The position numbers and the translations under genes are program-made. 64,000 bases of DNA from an uncultured Acidobacteriota bacterium (GTDB lineage: Bacteria; Acidobacteriota; Vicinamibacteria; Vicinamibacterales; CAVVIG01), in the NCBI GenBank assembly GCA_963761615.1, contig CAVXGU010000003.1, forward strand, positions 2,657,336 to 2,721,335, in the 5' to 3' direction. This document shows, in pieces, positions 170-58,213 of this stretch (its first letter is position 1; every line of letters starts with the position of its first letter). Under the pieces are notes generated by a model. It ran no database searches and was not told the origin of the DNA. It saw only the letters and a list, made by a program, of their open reading frames with translations.

Positions 170-177
170 GAATCACT

Positions 178-219
178 GGCGGCGGGGGCCGACCCTCACC
201 GCGAACTGACGCCGATGCC
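178..219. repeat. 42-nt direct repeat, copy A (intergenic, upstream of ribH)
   Basis: ggcggcgggggccgaccctcaccgcgaactgacgccgatgcc recurs 102 nt later at 280..321 with 39/42 identity. Confidence 0.85.
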
Positions 220-279
220 TCGCCTCGGATCTCCATGTCCTCGACTCGGCATGGCCGCAGGCGCCCCGCGCTCCTCATG

Positions 280-321
280 GGCGGCGGGGGCCGACCCTCA
301 CCGCGAACTCGTGCCGATGCC
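280..321. repeat. 42-nt direct repeat, copy B
   Basis: ggcggcgggggccgaccctcaccgcgaactcgtgccgatgcc has 3 mismatches to copy A. It lies 9 nt after the crotonase stop codon. Confidence 0.85.
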
Positions 322-329
322 CGCCTGGC

Positions 330-2745: not shown

Positions 2746-3618
2746 CTACGGCATGTACTTCCCGATGATTGGCTGCAGCGCCTTCTTCGTCGCCTCGGGG
2801 ACCGCTTCCGGCCGCGTGATGATGGCCTGCGCCAGCGCGTCCTTGCAGGGGCACGTGCGCGGTCCCGAGAGGCGTCCCACGGCTTCGGCAATCGCCTTCT
2901 GGGCCGTCGAGGCGTTCTGCAGCAGGTTCGCCACGATCAGGTCGACGGTCACCGCGTCGTGATCGGGATGCCAGCAGTCGTAGTCGGTCACGAGCGCCAG
3001 CGTCGCGTAGCAGATCTCGGCCTCGCGGGCGAGCTTGGCTTCCTGCAGGTTCGTCATCCCGATGACGTCCATGCCCCACGAGCGATACAGCCGCGACTCG
3101 GCGAGGGTCGAGAACTGGGGCCCCTCCATGTTCACGTAGGTCCCGCCGCGGTGCACGGTCGCGCCGACGGCCTCGACCGCATCCGCCGCGATGTCCGACA
3201 GCACGGCGCAGACCGGGTGCGCGAACGCGATGTGCGCCACCAGGCCGCGGCCGAAGAAGGTGCTCACGCGCCCCTTGGTGCGATCGAAGAACTGGTCGGG
3301 CACGACGATGTCGAGCGGCTTGAGATCCTCCTTGAGGCTGCCGACCGCGCTCGCCGACAGGATCCGCTCGACGCCGAGCGTCTTGAAGCCGTAGATGTTG
3401 GCGCGGAAGTTGAGCTCCGACGGCGAGATGCGGTGGCCCTTGCCGTGGCGCGCCAGAAAGGCGACGCGCTTGCCGCGCAGGGTCCCCGTCAGGTAGGGGC
3501 CCGACGGATCGCCGAACGGCGTCGTGACGGTCTCCTCCTTGCGATCCGTCAGCTCCGCCATGTCGTACAGCCCGCTTCCTCCGATGATTCCGATCTCGAT
3601 GTTCACGGCGGTCCTCAT
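2746..3618 (-). CDS. mtnP: S-methyl-5'-thioadenosine phosphorylase
   Basis: 290 aa with [30 protein letters not shown] and [30 protein letters not shown], typical of the MTAP/PNP family. Confidence 0.9.
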
Positions 3619-3627
3619 TTCTCACTG

Positions 3628-3651
3628 GCGCCGGGGCCTCACCCCCGGCGC
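3628..3651 (-). terminator. GC hairpin between the epimerase-fusion gene and mtnP
   Basis: gcgccgggg (3628..3636) pairs perfectly with ccccggcgc (3643..3651) across a 6-nt loop. There is no clear U-tract. Confidence 0.4.
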
Positions 3652-3670
3652 GGACTGACTCATACGCGAT

Positions 3671-24192: not shown

Positions 24193-25812
24193 CTACGGCG
24201 ACTCGGAGGCGGCCGCCGCGAGGCGCCTCGCCTCGGCCGAGGCCGGGTCGAGCGCGAGCGCGCGCTGGGCCTCCGCTTTGGCCGACTCGGGATCCTTGAC
24301 GTCCAGGTACGCCTGCGCGAGCGCGACGTGGGCGTCGGCCGTCTCGTGGCTCCAGATCGAGATCTTCAGCTCGGCAATCGCGTCACGGGCCCGGCCGTTC
24401 CGGAGGTCGATGCGGCCCAGCAGCCGGTGCGCCTCGGCATCGTAGGGCGAGATGAACAGGACGCGATTCAGCTGGGCCGTGGCCTCGCGGTCGTTCTCCT
24501 GATCGAACAGCTGCCGGCCGCGCGCGAGATAGCCCGCCGCCAGCTCGCGCTGGTCGCGCGCGTCGCTCGACTCGAGGGTCGATTCGAGGCGCTCGGCATG
24601 CGGCAGCTCGACGTCGCCGCGCACGCGCTCGAGTCCGGACGGGACCGGATCCCCGGAGGGCGGACCGGTGAACTTCTCGTAGTCGGATGACAGCCGCCGC
24701 GCCAGCTCCAACTCGCGCGAGGCTTCCCCGGGGTCGCCCGACGCCGCGAGCGCAGCGCTGAGCACGAAGTGGGCGTCGGCGTCGGCCGCGTTGCGTCGCA
24801 CGGCCTCGCGCAGCCAGTAGACGGCCGCCTTGGCGTCGTGATTCCGCCAGTACGCATACCCCGCGTTGAATCGATAGTCGGGATCGTCCGGGTCGGCGTC
24901 GGCGGCGCGCGTGAAGAAGTACGTCGGCAGCCCCAGCTCGGGATTCGAACCCCGACGCAGCTGCACGACGCCGAGGTCGTTCAGGACCGCCGCGGTGGGC
25001 TGCTCGTCGGCCAGGGTCTTGAACGTTCGATACGCATCGTCGTACCGCTCGAGCCCGAGCTGCGAGAGACCCGCCGCAAAGCGCGCCTGGCGCGCCCAGG
25101 CCGAGCCGGCCGCGACGGGCGCGACCGTCGCCAGCGCCTGTTCGTGATCGCCCAGGTCGTCGAAGACCGACCACAGCGCGAGGCGGGCGCGGTCGAAGTC
25201 GGGGGCGAGCTTCAGCGCGTTGCTCAGGTAGTTGGCGGCGTTGACGGGCGCCTCGGCCAGCAGGCCCTTGATGTACAGCTCGAACGCGGCCACCGGCGGA
25301 TACGAGCGATGCAGAGGCGCCGTCGCCGCGACGTCGGGCGACGCGGCGACCGCCCGCGTCAGCCGCTCGGCCACGGCGAAGAGGTCGGTCAGCGCGCCTT
25401 TCTCGGTGGCCGTCCCCACCACGCGCGCCGTGTCGAGGTCGATCGTCCGCGCGTGGAGCACGAGCGTGTCGCCGTCGAGCTCGAGCGTGCCCATGACGAC
25501 CTGGCTGGCACCGACGAGCTCGCCGATGCGAATCACGGTCGCGTCGGTCAGCGACGCCGACTGCGGCACCTGCAGGCGGTCGAACGCCGCCTGCCGTTCG
25601 TCACGCGTGATCGCCCCGCCCCCCATCGCGCGGAGGTCCTCGGCCACGAGGACGGCCGCGCCCTCTCCCAGCCAGACCGCGCGCGGATCGCGCTGGACGT
25701 TGTCGAACGGCATGACCAGGATCCGCGGCACGCCGTCGGGCGCCTGGGCCGCGGCCGGGCCGGCGACGCCGACCGCCAGGGCCGCCACGAGCGTCGCCAC
25801 CGCGGTCTTCAC
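24193..25812 (-). CDS. exported tetratricopeptide (TPR) repeat protein
   Basis: A GTG at 25812 overlaps the upstream stop (GTGA) and gives the signal peptide VKTAVATLVAALAVGVAGPAAAQA. The C-terminal half has multiple TPR-like A..Y...G....A repeats. Confidence 0.8.
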   Translation of the reverse strand: MKTAVATLVAALAVGVAGPAAAQAPDGVPRILVMPFDNVQRDPRAVWLGEGAAVLVAEDLRAMGGGAITRDERQAAFDRLQVPQSASLTDATVIRIGELVGASQVVMGTLELDGDTLVLHARTIDLDTARVVGTATEKGALTDLFAVAERLTRAVAASPDVAATAPLHRSYPPVAAFELYIKGLLAEAPVNAANYLSNALKLAPDFDRARLALWSVFDDLGDHEQALATVAPVAAGSAWARQARFAAGLSQLGLERYDDAYRTFKTLADEQPTAAVLNDLGVVQLRRGSNPELGLPTYFFTRAADADPDDPDYRFNAGYAYWRNHDAKAAVYWLREAVRRNAADADAHFVLSAALAASGDPGEASRELELARRLSSDYEKFTGPPSGDPVPSGLERVRGDVELPHAERLESTLESSDARDQRELAAGYLARGRQLFDQENDREATAQLNRVLFISPYDAEAHRLLGRIDLRNGRARDAIAELKISIWSHETADAHVALAQAYLDVKDPESAKAEAQRALALDPASAEARRLAAAASESP

Positions 25813-47331: not shown

Positions 47332-49095
<1,764 letters not shown>

Positions 49096-52169: not shown

Positions 52170-52950
52170 TGGGATGCGGCGCGTCGGACGGGCGGGGCCG
52201 CTTGTAGACGCGGATCGGCCCGAACGGACTCGACTGGTACACGCGCACCAGCTTGAGACGGATCATCTCGAGCAGCGCCAGGAAGGTCACGACGAGCGCG
52301 CCGCGGTCGGCGGCGTCCTCGAACAGGTCCTCGAATCCGCAGGCCTCGCTCTCCGAGAGCCGCACGAGGAGCTGCTCGATCCGCGCCTCGACCGACATCT
52401 GCTCGGGCGGCAGCAGCACGCGCGGCCGCTGCTTCGCGCGCTCGACGACGGCCTGGAACGCCGACAGGAGGCTGAAGAGATCGACCTCGAGCTCGGGTTC
52501 GTACTCCTCGCCGGCGATCTCGGCCACCCGCTCGTCCGGGCGCAGCCACTGCGCCGACCGAAGCTGCTCGCGCTCGTGCAGCAGACCCGCCGCCGCCTTG
52601 TACTTCTGATGCTCGAGGAGGCGCCGGACGAGGGCGTCGCGCGGATCCTCCGACTCCTCCCCCTCGGTTCCCGCAGCCGTCTCCGGCCGCGGCAGGAGCA
52701 TCTTCGACTTGATGTGAATCAGCGTCGCCGCCATCACCAGGTACTCCCCCGCCACGTCGAGGTTCAGCTCCTGCATCAGCTGCAGCGCATCCAGGTACTG
52801 CCGGGTGATGAGCGCGATGGGGATGTCGTGGACGCTCACCTCGTTCCTGCGGATGAGGTGCAGCAGCAGGTCGAGCGGCCCCTCGAAGTTCTCGAGCTTG
52901 ACCGGGAAGGCGTCGACCGCCGATTCGAAGTCCGGCACGCGGTCGGCCAT
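52141..52950 (-). CDS. scpA: segregation and condensation protein A
   Basis: It has FEGPLDLLLHLIRRNEV.VHDIPIA.IT.QYL and ...VTFLALLEMIRLK. Confidence 0.88.
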   Translation of the reverse strand: MADRVPDFESAVDAFPVKLENFEGPLDLLLHLIRRNEVSVHDIPIALITRQYLDALQLMQELNLDVAGEYLVMAATLIHIKSKMLLPRPETAAGTEGEESEDPRDALVRRLLEHQKYKAAAGLLHEREQLRSAQWLRPDERVAEIAGEEYEPELEVDLFSLLSAFQAVVERAKQRPRVLLPPEQMSVEARIEQLLVRLSESEACGFEDLFEDAADRGALVVTFLALLEMIRLKLVRVYQSSPFGPIRVYKRPRPSDAPHPIGDPETHRG

Positions 52951-53954
52951 CAGTAGGCGATCTTCATCGCGCCGCGGACGCGCGCCATGGTCTCCCGGGC
53001 CACCGCGCGCGCCCGGCGCGAGCCCTCCACGAGCACCTCGCGCAGGTAGCCCGGCCGGGCGAGCGCGGCGGCCCGGCGTTCGCGGATCGGATCCAGGTGG
53101 GCGTTGAGCGCCCTGGCCAGCTTCGTCTTCACCTCGACGTCGCCGACCTTGCCGGCGCGGTAGCGCGTCTTGAGATCCTCGACCTCCGCCGTGTCGGGAT
53201 TGAACGCGTCGTGATAGGTGAAGACCGGGTTGCCCTCGACGGTGCCGGGGATGTCGGCGCGGACCCGCTTCGGGTCCGTGTACATCCGCATGACCTTCTT
53301 CTTGACCTCGTCGGCCGAATCGGAGAGGTGAATCGTGTTGCCGAGGCTCTTGCTCATCTTCTTGTCGCCGTCCAGGCCCGGCAGCCGGGCGAACGTCGTG
53401 AGCAGCGGCCGCGGCTCGGTGAGGACGTCGCCATAGAAGTTGTTGAACCGCCTGACGACTTCGCGCGCGAGCTCGAGGTGCGCCACCTGATCCTCGCCGA
53501 CCGGCACGAAGGTCGCGTCGTAGATCGCGACGTCGGCGGTCTGGAGGAGCGGGTAGCCGAGGAAGCCGATCGACGACAGGTCCCGGTCCGACAGGTTCTC
53601 CTGCTGCTCCTTGTAGGTGGGCACGCGCTCGAGCCAGGGCACGGGCACGACCATCGAGAGCAGCAGGTACAGCTCGGCGTGCTCGGGCACGAGCGACTGG
53701 ACGAAGAACGTGGAGCGCTCGGGATCGAGACCGGCGCCGATCCAGTCGGCGACGTTCTCGTAGGCGTAGCCGACGAGCGGCGCCGTGTTGGCGTAGTCGC
53801 TCGTCAGCGCGTGCCAGTCGGCCACGAAGTAGAAGCAGTCGTACTGCGCCTGGAGCGGCACCCAGTTGTTCAGGGCGCCGATCAGGTGGCCGAGGTGGAG
53901 CTGTCCGGTCGGCCGCATGCCGGACACGACGCGCGCCTTCGTCACTGGAGCCAA
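52950..53954 (-). CDS. trpS: tryptophan--tRNA ligase
   Basis: It has SGMRPTGQLHLGHLIG (HIGH) and KMSKSLGN (KMSKS). Confidence 0.95.
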   Translation of the reverse strand: MAPVTKARVVSGMRPTGQLHLGHLIGALNNWVPLQAQYDCFYFVADWHALTSDYANTAPLVGYAYENVADWIGAGLDPERSTFFVQSLVPEHAELYLLLSMVVPVPWLERVPTYKEQQENLSDRDLSSIGFLGYPLLQTADVAIYDATFVPVGEDQVAHLELAREVVRRFNNFYGDVLTEPRPLLTTFARLPGLDGDKKMSKSLGNTIHLSDSADEVKKKVMRMYTDPKRVRADIPGTVEGNPVFTYHDAFNPDTAEVEDLKTRYRAGKVGDVEVKTKLARALNAHLDPIRERRAAALARPGYLREVLVEGSRRARAVARETMARVRGAMKIAY

Positions 53955-54595: not shown

Positions 54596-56518
54596 TTAAG
54601 GCCGGCCCGCGAAAAACGCAAGGACCCGATCCGCGACTCTCGCGCCGACCGCCGCCGACAACTCCTCGCGCGTCGCACGACGCACGCCCGCGAGGCTCCC
54701 GAAGCGCGTCAGCAGCGTGCGGCGCCGGCGGGGTCCGACGCCGGGGATCCCGTCGAGCGCCGACTGCAGATCGCGCATCGTCCGCGCGCGGCGATGAAAG
54801 GTGACGGCGAAGCGGTGGGCCTCGTCACGGATGCGCTGGAGCAGCAGCAGCGCCGGATGATTCGTCGCGAGCGCGATCGGATCCCGGCGATCGCGCGTGC
54901 AGACGAGCTCTTCCTTCTTGGCGAGGCCGATCGCGACCAGGTTCGCCAGGCCCAGCGACTCCAGCGCGCCGTACGCCGCCGCGAGCTGCCCGGCGCCTCC
55001 GTCGATGAGGATCAAGTCGGGAAACGGACCGCCGGCCTCGAGCAGCCGGCGATAGCGCCGCTGGACGACTTCGCGCATGGCGGCGAAGTCGTCATTCAAT
55101 GGCGCGGCGGCCCTCTCCCCGGCGCGACCTGACGCCGACGCCTCGCCTCGGACCTCCCCGTCCCCGCCTCGGTGTGGCCGCGGGCGCGACTGGCCACCGT
55201 CCGGCGCCGCCCCTGCCCGGCCCTTGATCCGGAACTTGCGGTAGTCGGAACGGCGCATCCGCCCGTCCTCGGCCACCACCATCGACGCGACGGTCTCGCG
55301 CCCCTGGATCGTGGAGATGTCGAAGCACTCGATCCGCCGCGGCAGGTGCGGCAGCGCGAGCACGGCCTGCAACGCCTCGAGCGCGTCGTACTGCGAGGCG
55401 GTCGCGTGGTTCACGCGCGCGTCGTAGGCGAGGGCCGCGTTCCGCGCGGCCAGCTCCACCAGCCCCCGCTTCCCGCCGCGCCTGGGCGCCACGATCCGCA
55501 CGCGGCGGCCCGCCCGCGCCGACAGCCATGCCTCGAGCGCCTCGGGTTCCGGCGGCAGGACCGGCACGTGGACTTCGGGCGGCACGTCCCGGATCTCGTA
55601 GAACTGCTGCAGCGCGGCCTCGACCACGTCGGCCTCGGTCGCGCCGGCAATCGGCTCGTCGGTCCCGAGCTCGACGCGCTCGACGACGCGCCCGCGGCGG
55701 ACCTCGAAGGCCTGCACGACGGCGCCGGCCGCCCCGAGCTTGACGCCGAACACGTCGCGATGCCCCAGCTCGACGCCCGCCATCTTCTGCTGGCGCTCGT
55801 CGAGCGTCTGCACGGTGCGGATGGCGTCGCGCAGGTGCGCCGCCTCCTCGTAGCGCTCGGCGTCGGCGGCGGCGCCCATCCGCTCGCGGAGCGAGCCCAC
55901 GAGCTCGTCGTTCTTGCCCTCGAGAAAGAGCTGGGTCAGGGCGACCGCGCGGCCGTACTCGTCCCTCGTGCAGATCGACTCGACGCAGGGCGCGATGCAG
56001 CGCTTGATGTCGTATTCGAGGCACGGCCGGCCCCGCTGCCCCGTGATGACCTCGTTGCAGGACCGGATCCCGAACAGCCGGTGCGTCAGCGCCATGGTGC
56101 GGCGGGCGAAGGTCGCCGGCAGGAACGGCCCGGCGTAGAAGCTGTCGTCGCGCTCGACGCGCCGCGCCACGAGCACTCGCGGAAACGCCTCCCCCGTCGT
56201 CAGCTGCAGGTACGGGTAGTTCTTGTCGTCGCGGAGGAGGATGTTGTACTTGGGCGACCGCTGCTTGATCAGGTTGTTCTCGAGCGCCAGCGCCTCCACG
56301 ACCGAGTCGGTGACGATCACCTCGAGGCGCGCCACCTCGTCCAGCAGCGCGTCGGTCTTCGGCGAGGATCCGTACGCGCCCAGGTAGGTGCGCACGCGGT
56401 CGCGCAGGGCGCGCGCCTTGCCCACGTAGATCGTCTCGCCCGCCGCGTTCAGGTACAGGTACACCCCGGGCTGCTCCGGCAGCCGCGCGATCTGCGCCTT
56501 GAGTTCATGGATGGGCAT
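54596..56518 (-). CDS. uvrC: excinuclease ABC subunit C, carrying an extra low-complexity insert
   Basis: It has a GIY-YIG N-terminus (GVYLYLNAAGETIYVGKA), a UVR domain, an endonuclease V-like domain and (HhH)2. It also has an extra segment, RAGAAPDGGQSRPRPHRGGDGEVRGEASASGRAGERAAAPL, before NDDFAAMREVV. Confidence 0.93.
   Translation of the reverse strand: MPIHELKAQIARLPEQPGVYLYLNAAGETIYVGKARALRDRVRTYLGAYGSSPKTDALLDEVARLEVIVTDSVVEALALENNLIKQRSPKYNILLRDDKNYPYLQLTTGEAFPRVLVARRVERDDSFYAGPFLPATFARRTMALTHRLFGIRSCNEVITGQRGRPCLEYDIKRCIAPCVESICTRDEYGRAVALTQLFLEGKNDELVGSLRERMGAAADAERYEEAAHLRDAIRTVQTLDERQQKMAGVELGHRDVFGVKLGAAGAVVQAFEVRRGRVVERVELGTDEPIAGATEADVVEAALQQFYEIRDVPPEVHVPVLPPEPEALEAWLSARAGRRVRIVAPRRGGKRGLVELAARNAALAYDARVNHATASQYDALEALQAVLALPHLPRRIECFDISTIQGRETVASMVVAEDGRMRRSDYRKFRIKGRAGAAPDGGQSRPRPHRGGDGEVRGEASASGRAGERAAAPLNDDFAAMREVVQRRYRRLLEAGGPFPDLILIDGGAGQLAAAYGALESLGLANLVAIGLAKKEELVCTRDRRDPIALATNHPALLLLQRIRDEAHRFAVTFHRRARTMRDLQSALDGIPGVGPRRRRTLLTRFGSLAGVRRATREELSAAVGARVADRVLAFFAGRP
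55101..55200. repeat. copy of the ribH-upstream GC-rich repeat embedded in frame in uvrC
   Basis: 55129..55181 matches 206..258 at 45/53 positions without gaps (ctgacgccgaYgcctcgcctcggaYctcc...ctcgg..tggccgc). The flanks are more weakly similar. Confidence 0.75.
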
Positions 56519-57379: not shown

Positions 57380-58213
57380 CTAGGCTCGCTTGCGCTTCTT
57401 CGCCGCGGGAGCGGCGGTCGCCTTGGCGGGCGTCTTCTTCTCGCGGCTGACGCGGTCGAGGCTCTTGCGCAGGGCGTCCATGAGGTTGACGACCGGCGCC
57501 GGAGCCGCGGCCTCGGGCGCGGTCGCCGCCTCGCCGGCGATCTTCGCGTCGATGATCCGGCGCAGGCCCGCCTGGTACTCGTCGGTGTAGTCGCGCAGGT
57601 TCAGCGGCCCCTCGAACGTCCCGATCACCTGGCGCGCCAGCTTCAGCTCCTCCGGCTTCACCGCGGCCGGTACCGACCCGAGATCCTCGACGTCGTCGAG
57701 GCTCCGGATCTCCGCGGCCTGGTGCAGCGTGTGCATCACGATCCCGCGGCCCGACGCCTTGACCGCGACCAGGTACTCCCGGCCGTAGAGCGCCAGTTTG
57801 CCGATCCCGACCTTCCCCTTCAGGCCCTCGCGCATCACGGCGTAGGCGCTCGCCGCCATCGCACCGTCGGGCGCGAGGTAGTACGAACGGTCCACGTAGA
57901 TCGGATCGACGGCGCCCTCGTCGGCGAACTGCACCAGGTCGATGACCCGGGTGGAGGCGGGTTTGACCTGCTCGAAGTCCTCCTCGGACAGGACCACCCA
58001 CCGGCCCTTCTCGAACTCGTAGCCCTTGACGATCTCCGAGCTCGGGACCTCGGCCTGATGGAACGGGCACCACTTCTTCTGCTGGATCCGCGTCCCGCAC
58101 GTCGCGTGCAGCTGGTTGAAGGAGATCGTCGCACTCGACTCGGTCGCCGGGAACACCTTGATCGGGATGTTCACCAGGCTGATCTTGAGATAGCCCTTCC
58201 AGGTCGGTCGCAT
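57380..58213 (-). CDS. ku: Ku protein (non-homologous end joining)
   Basis: It starts MRPTWKGYLKISLVNIPIKVFPATES, has a Ku core, and has a basic tail KKTPAKATAAPAAKKRKRA. Confidence 0.9.
   Translation of the reverse strand: MRPTWKGYLKISLVNIPIKVFPATESSATISFNQLHATCGTRIQQKKWCPFHQAEVPSSEIVKGYEFEKGRWVVLSEEDFEQVKPASTRVIDLVQFADEGAVDPIYVDRSYYLAPDGAMAASAYAVMREGLKGKVGIGKLALYGREYLVAVKASGRGIVMHTLHQAAEIRSLDDVEDLGSVPAAVKPEELKLARQVIGTFEGPLNLRDYTDEYQAGLRRIIDAKIAGEAATAPEAAAPAPVVNLMDALRKSLDRVSREKKTPAKATAAPAAKKRKRA

Follow-up and report, generated by a model that had tools for sequence, protein, structure and literature searches.

Palindromic repeats that settle in frame inside genes are known chiefly from Rickettsia, together with scattered cases among repetitive extragenic palindromic (REP) sequences. 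Rickettsia palindromic elements (RPEs) occupy protein-coding genes in frame (Ogata et al. 2000, as summarised in PMC3733652), and in several bacteria REPs have been reported within coding regions (Di Nocera et al. 2013, PMC3733652). The locus described here lies in the uvrC gene of an uncultured Acidobacteriota bacterium of the order Vicinamibacterales, on a stretch of 64,000 nucleotides (hereafter the window; positions 2,657,336 to 2,721,335 of contig CAVXGU010000003.1, assembly GCA_963761615.1). Within this gene lies, in frame, a copy of a dispersed structured repeat, named T1 here; it is an insertion relative to the general state of UvrC. The protein loop that it occupies was hypervariable both among members of the lineage and inside populations, and the reading frame was kept in every case.

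The window protein displayed the GIY-YIG, UVR, RNase H-like endonuclease and (HhH)2 domains of UvrC in the expected order, all above Pfam thresholds. Its C-terminal half aligned to structures 2NRT, 3C65 and 8B0Q and its N-terminus to 1YD6, and more than 7999 homologues were recovered, the best ones being named Vicinamibacterales (Acidobacteriota). The insert encodes residues 433-475, GRAGAAPDGGQSRPRPHRGGDGEVRGEASASGRAGERAAAPLN (43 residues), between the strand YRKFRIK and DDFAAM, i.e. in the RNase H-like endonuclease domain and immediately ahead of DDF, the motif with which helix 1 begins. In this DDY/DDF motif the second Asp presumably corresponds to E. coli D438, a residue implicated in 5' incision. 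An earlier note on this DNA, made from the sequence alone, had placed an in-frame insertion at 55098-55223, which was essentially correct (measured span in Table 1), and had held that only a few residues normally separate the two flanking motifs. Indeed, 4-5 residues lead from the YRK[FY]-type strand to the DDY helix in solved UvrC structures (T. maritima 2NRT, Bacillus 3C65 and D. radiodurans 8B0Q). Likewise, empty loops of 4 residues occurred within Vicinamibacterales, e.g. GEQQ, GESR, GAQQ and GVTL (L148, L156, L158, L194), and the insert is thus lineage-specific.

The proposed location in a surface loop was consistent with an AlphaFold2 model of UvrC built on an alignment of 58 orthologues. 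The full-length model was modest (mean predicted local distance difference test score, pLDDT, 64.4; predicted template modelling score 0.40; residues 71-183 poorly modelled). Near the insert, two elements of the RNase H-like domain, strand 427-431 and helix 477-495, reached block pLDDT values of 80-92 and enclosed a coil with pLDDT below 50 (28-34 for insert residues 435-471). The 43-residue insert is predicted to form a disordered loop. The qualification of UvrC as an essential protein did not hold, since this repair protein is not known to be essential in model bacteria.

At the DNA level, the ungapped match reported in the earlier note between 55129-55181 and the intergenic positions 206-258 (45 of 53 positions identical) was reproduced exactly, and it widened to 92 nt at 77% identity (55096-55187 versus 173-264). 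A 24-mer common to both, CTGACGCCGAYGCCTCGCCTCGGA, occurred exactly twice in the window, with 0 occurrences expected from 100 dinucleotide shuffles. An independent profile hidden Markov model was trained on 108 copies from other genomes, all window copies and all uvrC copies being excluded. It matched 55087-55188 (minus strand) over the full model length (E=1e-13, 47 bits), and its other matches in the window were 166-264 (E=2e-25), 3615-3667 (E=6e-9) and 274-322 (E=1e-5). The window accordingly contained 4 T1 copies (Table 1), every one on the strand of its flanking genes. Copy B directly follows the stop codon (330-332) of an enoyl-CoA hydratase gene, and copy C fills a 52-nt spacer separating two minus-strand genes, its TGA lying 3 nt ahead of the ATG (3618) of a PNP/MTAP-family phosphorylase gene. 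The earlier idea of a dispersed element of roughly 100 nt was thus upheld as to dispersal; the unit itself measures 92 nt, and the other 35 nt of the insert (55188-55222) are a separate G-rich segment.

None of the three sense frames of T1 contains an internal stop; frame c closes at the terminal TGA and uvrC reads frame b, in which copy A would be translated as RLRPCRVEDMEIRGEASASVRGEGRPPPPV. Because the element is stop-free internally and its target was a surface loop of 4-5 residues, uvrC was kept intact and gained a Gly/Arg/Ala/Pro-rich loop, predicted to be disordered.

Family T1 was surveyed by scanning one genome per species for the exact core pattern AGTTCGCGGNGNGGGTNGGNCCCCGCCGCC, which gave at least 113 stretches. 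Most belonged to metagenome-assembled genomes (MAGs) labelled Acidobacteriota, Acidobacteria or Vicinamibacterales, a minority being labelled Betaproteobacteria or Bifidobacteriaceae; all census loci are MAG DNA of genomes other than the source of the window. A profile search of the listed stretches returned 176 matches, 133 of them full length. Among the matches listed, copies were many per MAG, including tandem arrays with a period of 96-102 nt, and the start codon of the next gene typically lay 3-25 nt past the T1 end. A crude coding-frame classification of the downstream sequence found 90 of these matches co-oriented with the downstream gene, 9 opposed and 56 unclear. The consensus, GCGCCTGCGGCCATGCCGAGCCGAGGACATGGAAATCCGAGGCGAGGCATCAGCGTCAGTTCGCGGCGGGGGTGGGGCCCCGCCGCCAGTGA, is a 92-nt unit with sharp ends (GCGCCTGCGG...GCCGCCAGTGA), followed 3' by an A-rich or Shine-Dalgarno-like tail, e.g. 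AAAAAAGTTGGC or AAGAGGA. Median identity of the copies to the consensus was 90%, in host species that share only about 78% nucleotide identity in uvrC, and this conservation suggests that T1 functions in mRNA leaders.

The core was found solo (copy C) or joined to other 5' modules. Family T5, for instance, combines a T1-type core with a different 5' module, and was present in uvrC of other strains as well as in intergenic sequences (L147, L107). Our literature search on Vicinamibacterales repeats of this sort, or on a uvrC insertion hotspot, returned only general reviews on REPs and on MITEs (miniature transposable elements bounded by inverted repeats), which is not proof of absence; family T1 is apparently undescribed so far.

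An alignment of 113 copies gave a consensus fold in which a closing stem is joined by two hairpins: a variable one on the 5' side, with tandem G.A/A.G mismatches, and a conserved one on the 3' side (the core), which has a 9-bp stem and finishes in CAGTGA. In this structure 98.4% of cells were paired, versus 35-45% with slid partners, and two-sided pair changes were seen in 131 cells versus 8-20 in slid controls; none of 500 shuffles reached the observed pairing and covariation values. Covarying pairs included U-A 77 / C-G 33, G-C 89 / A-U 17 and A-U 91 / C-G 18. Variation of hairpin 2 (the core) is under-sampled, since the scan pattern fixed its sequence. G-U cells outnumbered A-C cells (24 versus 11), which mildly favours T1 acting as an RNA read in the gene sense. 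Hairpin 1 of T1 (e.g. window 211-255) and the hairpin of T5 (L197 insert) both displayed CGAG in both arms, giving conserved tandem G.A/A.G mismatches inside covarying stems. Such mismatches are typical of protein-binding RNA motifs.

T1 had no match in Rfam: at the gathering threshold the window gave only a SAM riboswitch (RF00162, 61983-62105, minus strand; 76.5 bits versus a gathering score of 44.4), and at E<=1 three loci with consensus-like T1 copies gave 0 matches on the element. Two other hairpins of about 90-100 nt from Vicinamibacterales DNA (L046 6415-6512 and L022 2886-2975), matching only microRNA-precursor models below threshold, probably belong to further hairpin repeat families.

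The uvrC insertion site was compared in about 200 relatives, composed of the 120 best UvrC proteins and 80 metagenomic uvrC genes with their DNA. In the protein set, this single site carried 4-79 residues of mutually unrelated sequence. The T1 peptide (RLRP..EIRGE.SASVRGGGGAPPPV) was present in about 35 of the 120 proteins; other types were WDSGFGIRDS..ESQIPNPESRQ, ARPSTGSGRA..LVVSLSNHE, GLGLGARDW..PSPQPP and RSVLDTRE..SASADGGGAP (T5), and nested and doubled forms also occurred. All 80 metagenomic genes were in frame and stop-free at the site, with inserts of 4-78 residues and four genes in the 4-residue base state. The variability was sharply localised: 130 of the 147 gaps of at least 3 residues in UvrC alignments fell at residues 430-475, and the neighbouring M50 peptidase and TrpRS genes displayed minor indels only. 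In TrpRS (52950-53954, minus strand), 16 of 53 related loci had a gap of at least 3 residues at one position, around residues 170-180. The picture of a single insertion given in the earlier note was therefore incomplete: an in-frame insert was confirmed and its toleration supported, while a hypervariable hotspot with many unrelated hairpin repeats had been overlooked.

The shared peptide of these 35 or so orthologues could also be taken for an old and conserved Gly/Arg/Ala-rich linker whose likeness to intergenic DNA is a compositional chance. Yet the insert matched a DNA profile built independently of uvrC, and the peptide is what frame b encodes in a repeat present in at least 113 stretches, almost all of them intergenic. 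T1-bearing proteins were moreover interspersed among other insert types in a rough neighbour-joining tree of UvrC, and distant UvrC proteins as well as some close ones have 4-5 residues at the site. Together these observations refute an ancestral linker, which we regard as exceedingly improbable.

Most inserts were, at the DNA level, palindromes starting with the Gly codon that follows R-I-R, for example (GGGATTC)n...(GAATCCC)n, (GGGGCTC)n...(GAGCCCC)n, the perfect 26-bp hairpin of L122 and the long hairpin of the LVVSLSNHE type. Among the 64 inserts of at least 45 nt, 32 folded better than dinucleotide shuffles at z<-2 and 24 at z<-3; the remainder look decayed. Several insert types were also matched away from the uvrC site in a limited DNA set. 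Matches in L126, L169 and L170 that looked dispersed are the uvrC site itself.

In-frame tolerance is not confined to uvrC, since a second in-frame T1 copy was found at L052 647-737, read in element frame a (APAATPSRGQADPRRGVGVSSRRGWGPAAS). Its host is the linker of an unrelated protein with a Trans_reg_C winged-helix domain followed by a transmembrane segment and PD40 repeats. Recurrence is confined to uvrC: among the 176 listed copies, in-frame genic ones occurred in uvrC and in this single other gene. Two antisense candidates (L095 and L083) were dropped, their GC1>GC3 signature being that of the wrong strand of a real gene.

Turnover of alleles could be followed between strains. Proteins P0097 and P0014 were 100% identical over 597 residues outside the insert, and the corresponding alleles (L197/L198 versus L199/L200) displayed 11 silent substitutions in about 1.8 kb. 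Their inserts differed, one being of 108 nt (T1) and the other of 153 nt (T5 plus another module), while the right junction (CAGTAA/ACAACGACTTC) was common to both; 5 nt away from the left one they showed a silent difference. Each allele occurred on four contigs, and the two fetched loci per allele came from different, related soil samples, which argues against an assembly artefact. Likewise, P0095 and P0056 were 98.7% identical outside the insert and completely different inside. The uvrC genes of L001 and L002 presented the opposite pattern, being 78% identical overall (55% at third codon positions) with T1 copies identical at 91 of 92 positions; identity fell sharply at the T1 ends and the left junctions differed.

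Such replacements may recall site-preferred integration, in which the codons ahead of DDF would be a preferred landing site and the pattern would result from targeted insertion happening time and again, not from survivorship in a permissive loop. Identical right junctions of different elements on near-identical backbones fit this idea, as do the 3' core and uvrC right boundary that T1 and T5 have in common, the consensus-like T1 copies in uvrC genes only 78% identical to each other, and the fact that nearly all in-frame genic copies among the matches listed were in uvrC. Left junctions varied, however, from 2 to 12 codons between GGC and the element, and non-T1 inserts lay on the opposite side of the native x-x-Q codons, so that there is no single insertion point. 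Moreover, no recombinase and no target motif common with the intergenic sites were found, and homologous recombination between strains could equally have put old alleles on near-identical backbones. We consider integration directed to this site unlikely.

The window copy itself was among the most degenerate of its family, with 78% identity to the consensus, the second lowest of 109 copies. For comparison, the uvrC copies of L001, L002 and L088 were 91-94% identical to it, and copy A reached a similar value (Table 1). Both hairpin modules were weakened, and the insert folded no better than shuffles (z=+0.45 to +0.48; other strand +0.17), for which reason a structural role was set aside for this particular copy. 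The fold of the family emerged only from the 113 aligned copies. In the closest relative (P0002/L003, 94% protein identity), the loop consisted of 12 residues, GGTSGGVPPPL plus N, encoded by a short core-like hairpin with a CACTGA tail. We infer that the window copy is an old insertion, now decaying, and that the 12-codon loop is a core-derived remnant; a deletion remnant and a solo core insertion fit it alike.

This degeneration bears on a function at RNA level, whereby a hairpin in the uvrC message would slow ribosomes, mark an RNase processing site or enable internal initiation at a conserved Met 21 nt downstream. The position mirrors the usual one of T1 just upstream of start codons, the element being always sense-oriented and the in-frame ATG of DFAAM, about 21 nt past it, falling inside the usual range of 3-25 nt. 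Covariation across the family, with its G-U excess over A-C, indicates selection for structure, half of the inserts folded far better than shuffles, and the L001 and L002 copies were 99% identical between flanks of 78%. The window copy and about half of the inserts nevertheless lacked excess stability, empty 4-residue alleles exist, and the inserts, of 12 to 234 nt, show no sequence relationship to one another. A product started at that Met would, besides, be deprived of the first three strands of the nuclease fold. Such a role in the uvrC message appears quite unlikely.

In-frame insertion of T1, tolerated in a permissive hotspot loop, is as a whole the account that we hold to be highly probable. 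The loop would be a lineage-wide hotspot in which palindromic repeats from many families come in, decay, disappear by deletion and give way to others, selection purging every out-of-frame or stop-containing variant. Most likely, several ingredients act jointly: a high insertion rate of hairpin repeats in Vicinamibacterales genomes, an exceptionally permissive loop, and a resident palindrome that would draw further insertion and deletion, the alleles being then reshuffled among strains via recombination. By inference, the inserts are translated and tolerated rather than used.

Several points weigh against this account. Simple tolerance leaves unexplained the frequency of hits on one loop, in-frame genic T1 being otherwise present in a single gene among the 176 listed copies. 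No transposase, terminal inverted repeats or target duplication were found for T1 in the fetched loci, and its mobility is therefore deduced from its distribution only. The census of copies is biased, since the scan demanded an exact core-hairpin pattern and yielded at least 113 stretches. Finally, the near-identical T1 copies of L001 and L002, which we read as recent independent acquisition or gene conversion, may possibly reflect sequence constraint in place.

Two further explanations were considered. Protein-level diversifying selection would make variation of a surface loop near the 5'-incision site advantageous, for instance in escape from a UvrC-binding inhibitor. Extreme variability limited to one loop, strict frame-keeping and polymorphism down to strain level would fit such a process. 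Yet the variants can be recognised as translated DNA palindromes and dispersed intergenic repeats and not as products of point mutation, their composition is of low complexity in a loop predicted to be disordered, and we know of no partner protein of the UvrC loop; we judge this very improbable. The other explanation is that the loop would be an actively targeted cassette site, variable at population level, for a superfamily of modular hairpin elements that are functional structured leader RNAs, the uvrC copy being an internal regulatory or processing element and not junk. This is doubtful; if it were true, an RNA-control module both translated and swappable would be part of a conserved repair gene, and leaders of this sort would stand just ahead of hundreds of Vicinamibacterales start codons.

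Table 1. Coordinates in the window of uvrC, its insert and the T1 copies
Feature	Position	Strand	Characteristics
uvrC coding sequence, 640 aa	54596..56518	-	Open reading frame and Pfam domains GIY-YIG, UVR, UvrC RNase H-like, (HhH)2
Variable loop segment, codons 433-475	55094..55222	-	Splits the Pfam UvrC_RNaseH_dom match at profile position ~53/54
T1 copy inside uvrC, degenerate	55096..55187	-	Element frame b (RPRPHRGGDGEVRGEASASGRAGERAAAPL); E=1e-13 against the independent profile
Hairpin 1 module, uvrC copy, weakened	55134..55178	-	-18.8 kcal/mol versus -26.1 in a consensus-like copy
Hairpin 2 (core) module, uvrC copy, degraded	55102..55125	-	-11.3 kcal/mol versus -22.7
G-rich 35-nt segment left of the uvrC element	55188..55222	-	Encodes GRAGAAPDGGQS
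T1 copy A, full-length, intergenic	173..264	-	92% identity to consensus; terminal TGA 3 nt ahead of ribH ATG at 169
T1 copy B, partial (3' half, core)	274..322	-	In tandem with copy A, 102-nt spacing
T1 copy C, solo core	3615..3667	-	Perfect 9-bp hairpin 3628-3651 (z=-2.4)

Tandem G-rich octamers (GGGCAGGT / GGGCGGGA) were present within 70 nt upstream of about 14% of the listed T1 copies, versus 0.35% of random 70-mers (L077, L028, L106, L044 and L021 among others). They may form G-quadruplexes or represent an additional repeat module. The G-rich segment left of the uvrC element resembles the GGGCAGG-type octamer runs ahead of intergenic T1 copies, an assignment that is tentative. Peptides like QAGQVGQVGQVG, found in some UvrC inserts, resemble translated octamers.

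Elsewhere in the window, a short-range inverted-repeat scan for other hairpin inserts in genes gave weak GC-rich palindromes only, and one candidate (24199-24250) belonged to the normal coding sequence of a TPR gene, near its 3' end. Direct repeats with a period of 255-261 nt and 60-87% identity occurred at 47552-48407; these are presumably repeated S1 domains, from a gene resembling rpsA, in line with the annotation of the syntenic loci L001 and L002. A Ku gene (57380-58213, minus strand) was located two genes away from uvrC, and the order Ku / CDP-alcohol phosphatidyltransferase / uvrC / M50 peptidase / TrpRS was kept across relatives (L001, L002, L198, L199).

This study adds to the known cases of genic palindromes a covarying repeat family placed beside start codons in a major, poorly studied soil lineage. 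The uvrC site serves as a natural experiment in the uptake of foreign sequence by an enzyme loop, from 4 to 79 residues beside a nuclease active-site helix with the frame always kept. Gain, decay, loss and replacement of hairpin repeats can be tracked at this single locus with strain resolution. Since turnover can be traced there, the mechanism of repeat mobility becomes testable, a long-open question for REP-like elements without a known transposase. The site is also usable as a strain-resolving marker in metagenomes. For annotation, a warning is appropriate, because peptides like RLRP..SASVRGGGGAPPPV or LVVSLSNHE derive from repeats.

Several known systems were compared with T1. Members of the CGTC-tagged REP superfamily carry CGTC directly at the end, an 8-9-bp stem whose first two positions are A/T, a loop of 4-5 nt and a CCA tail (PMC3733652). 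The T1 core (GCGTCAGTTC-GCGGCGGGG-GTGGGG-CCCCGCCGC-CAGTGA) is similarly a short GC-rich stem-loop with a 9-bp stem, also occurring solo, with CGTC near its 5' side and a CCAG tail after the stem. The stem length fits this superfamily; the CGTC lying 5 nt off the stem, the all-G/C stem and the 6-nt loop do not, and T1 was not assigned to it. A REP or REPIN, marked by GTAG at one end of a 20-40-nt palindrome, was likewise rejected, the consensus having no terminal GTAG at either of its ends. T1 further differs from REPs by the absence of head-to-head dimers, its composite organization of about 92 nt and its strong orientation bias toward the downstream gene. A tblastn search of about 1.5 Mb of fetched loci for a REP-associated tyrosine transposase (RAYT, an IS200/IS605-like Y1 transposase) gene, a weak test made with an E. 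coli RAYT sequence, gave nothing better than E=0.2. As to the MITE features, terminal inverted repeats and target-site duplications, the two T1 ends resemble each other only weakly (CTG.CGGC), and inspection of the flanks of 125 copies revealed no consistent duplication.

Two other candidates did not fit. An integron attC site, suggested by a GTT-like tail near the next gene, was rejected on inspection, since the flanking genes are housekeeping ones (ribH and the PNP-family phosphorylase) and the tail does not match GTTRRRY in a consistent manner. An intrinsic terminator was rejected as well, the core hairpin being followed by an A-run and not a T-run on the sense strand, with nothing suitable on the other strand. 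Translational bypass elements (T4 gene 60 and the mitochondrial 'byps' of Magnusiomyces) are skipped by the ribosome, so that their frame and stops are unconstrained. They resemble the uvrC inserts as GC-rich, hairpin-forming mobile inserts in coding sequences that still give a functional protein. Yet all 80 metagenomic uvrC inserts were in frame and stop-free, which argues that they are translated and excludes bypass elements.

Mycobacterial interspersed repetitive units (MIRUs), described by Supply et al. in 1997, are said to be 40-100-bp repeats, often in tandem, situated between genes of the same orientation, pointing the same way and carrying stop and start codons at their ends. By this description T1 is alike, with its TGA 3 nt ahead of the ATG of ribH and of the phosphorylase gene and a comparable orientation. 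It differs from MIRUs by its covarying hairpin structure, and in-frame occupation of a conserved enzyme loop is, to our knowledge, not a MIRU feature.

Compared with RPEs, T1 belongs to a different phylum and to a free-living, high-GC host; given host phylum and base composition, homology is unlikely. T1 is also overwhelmingly intergenic and placed next to start codons. We know of no description, for RPEs, of many unrelated repeat families turning over at one loop of one gene down to strain level. The analogy with RPEs drawn in the earlier note is one of behaviour and not of sequence, and as such it was well founded; the REP copies inside open reading frames are a similar case. Both are dispersed palindromic repeats of about 100 nt, occurring in intergenic DNA as well as in frame in a conserved gene and adding a seemingly tolerated peptide. 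Like RPEs, T1 was found in frame within intact open reading frames, that of uvrC and, as a second case, that of L052.

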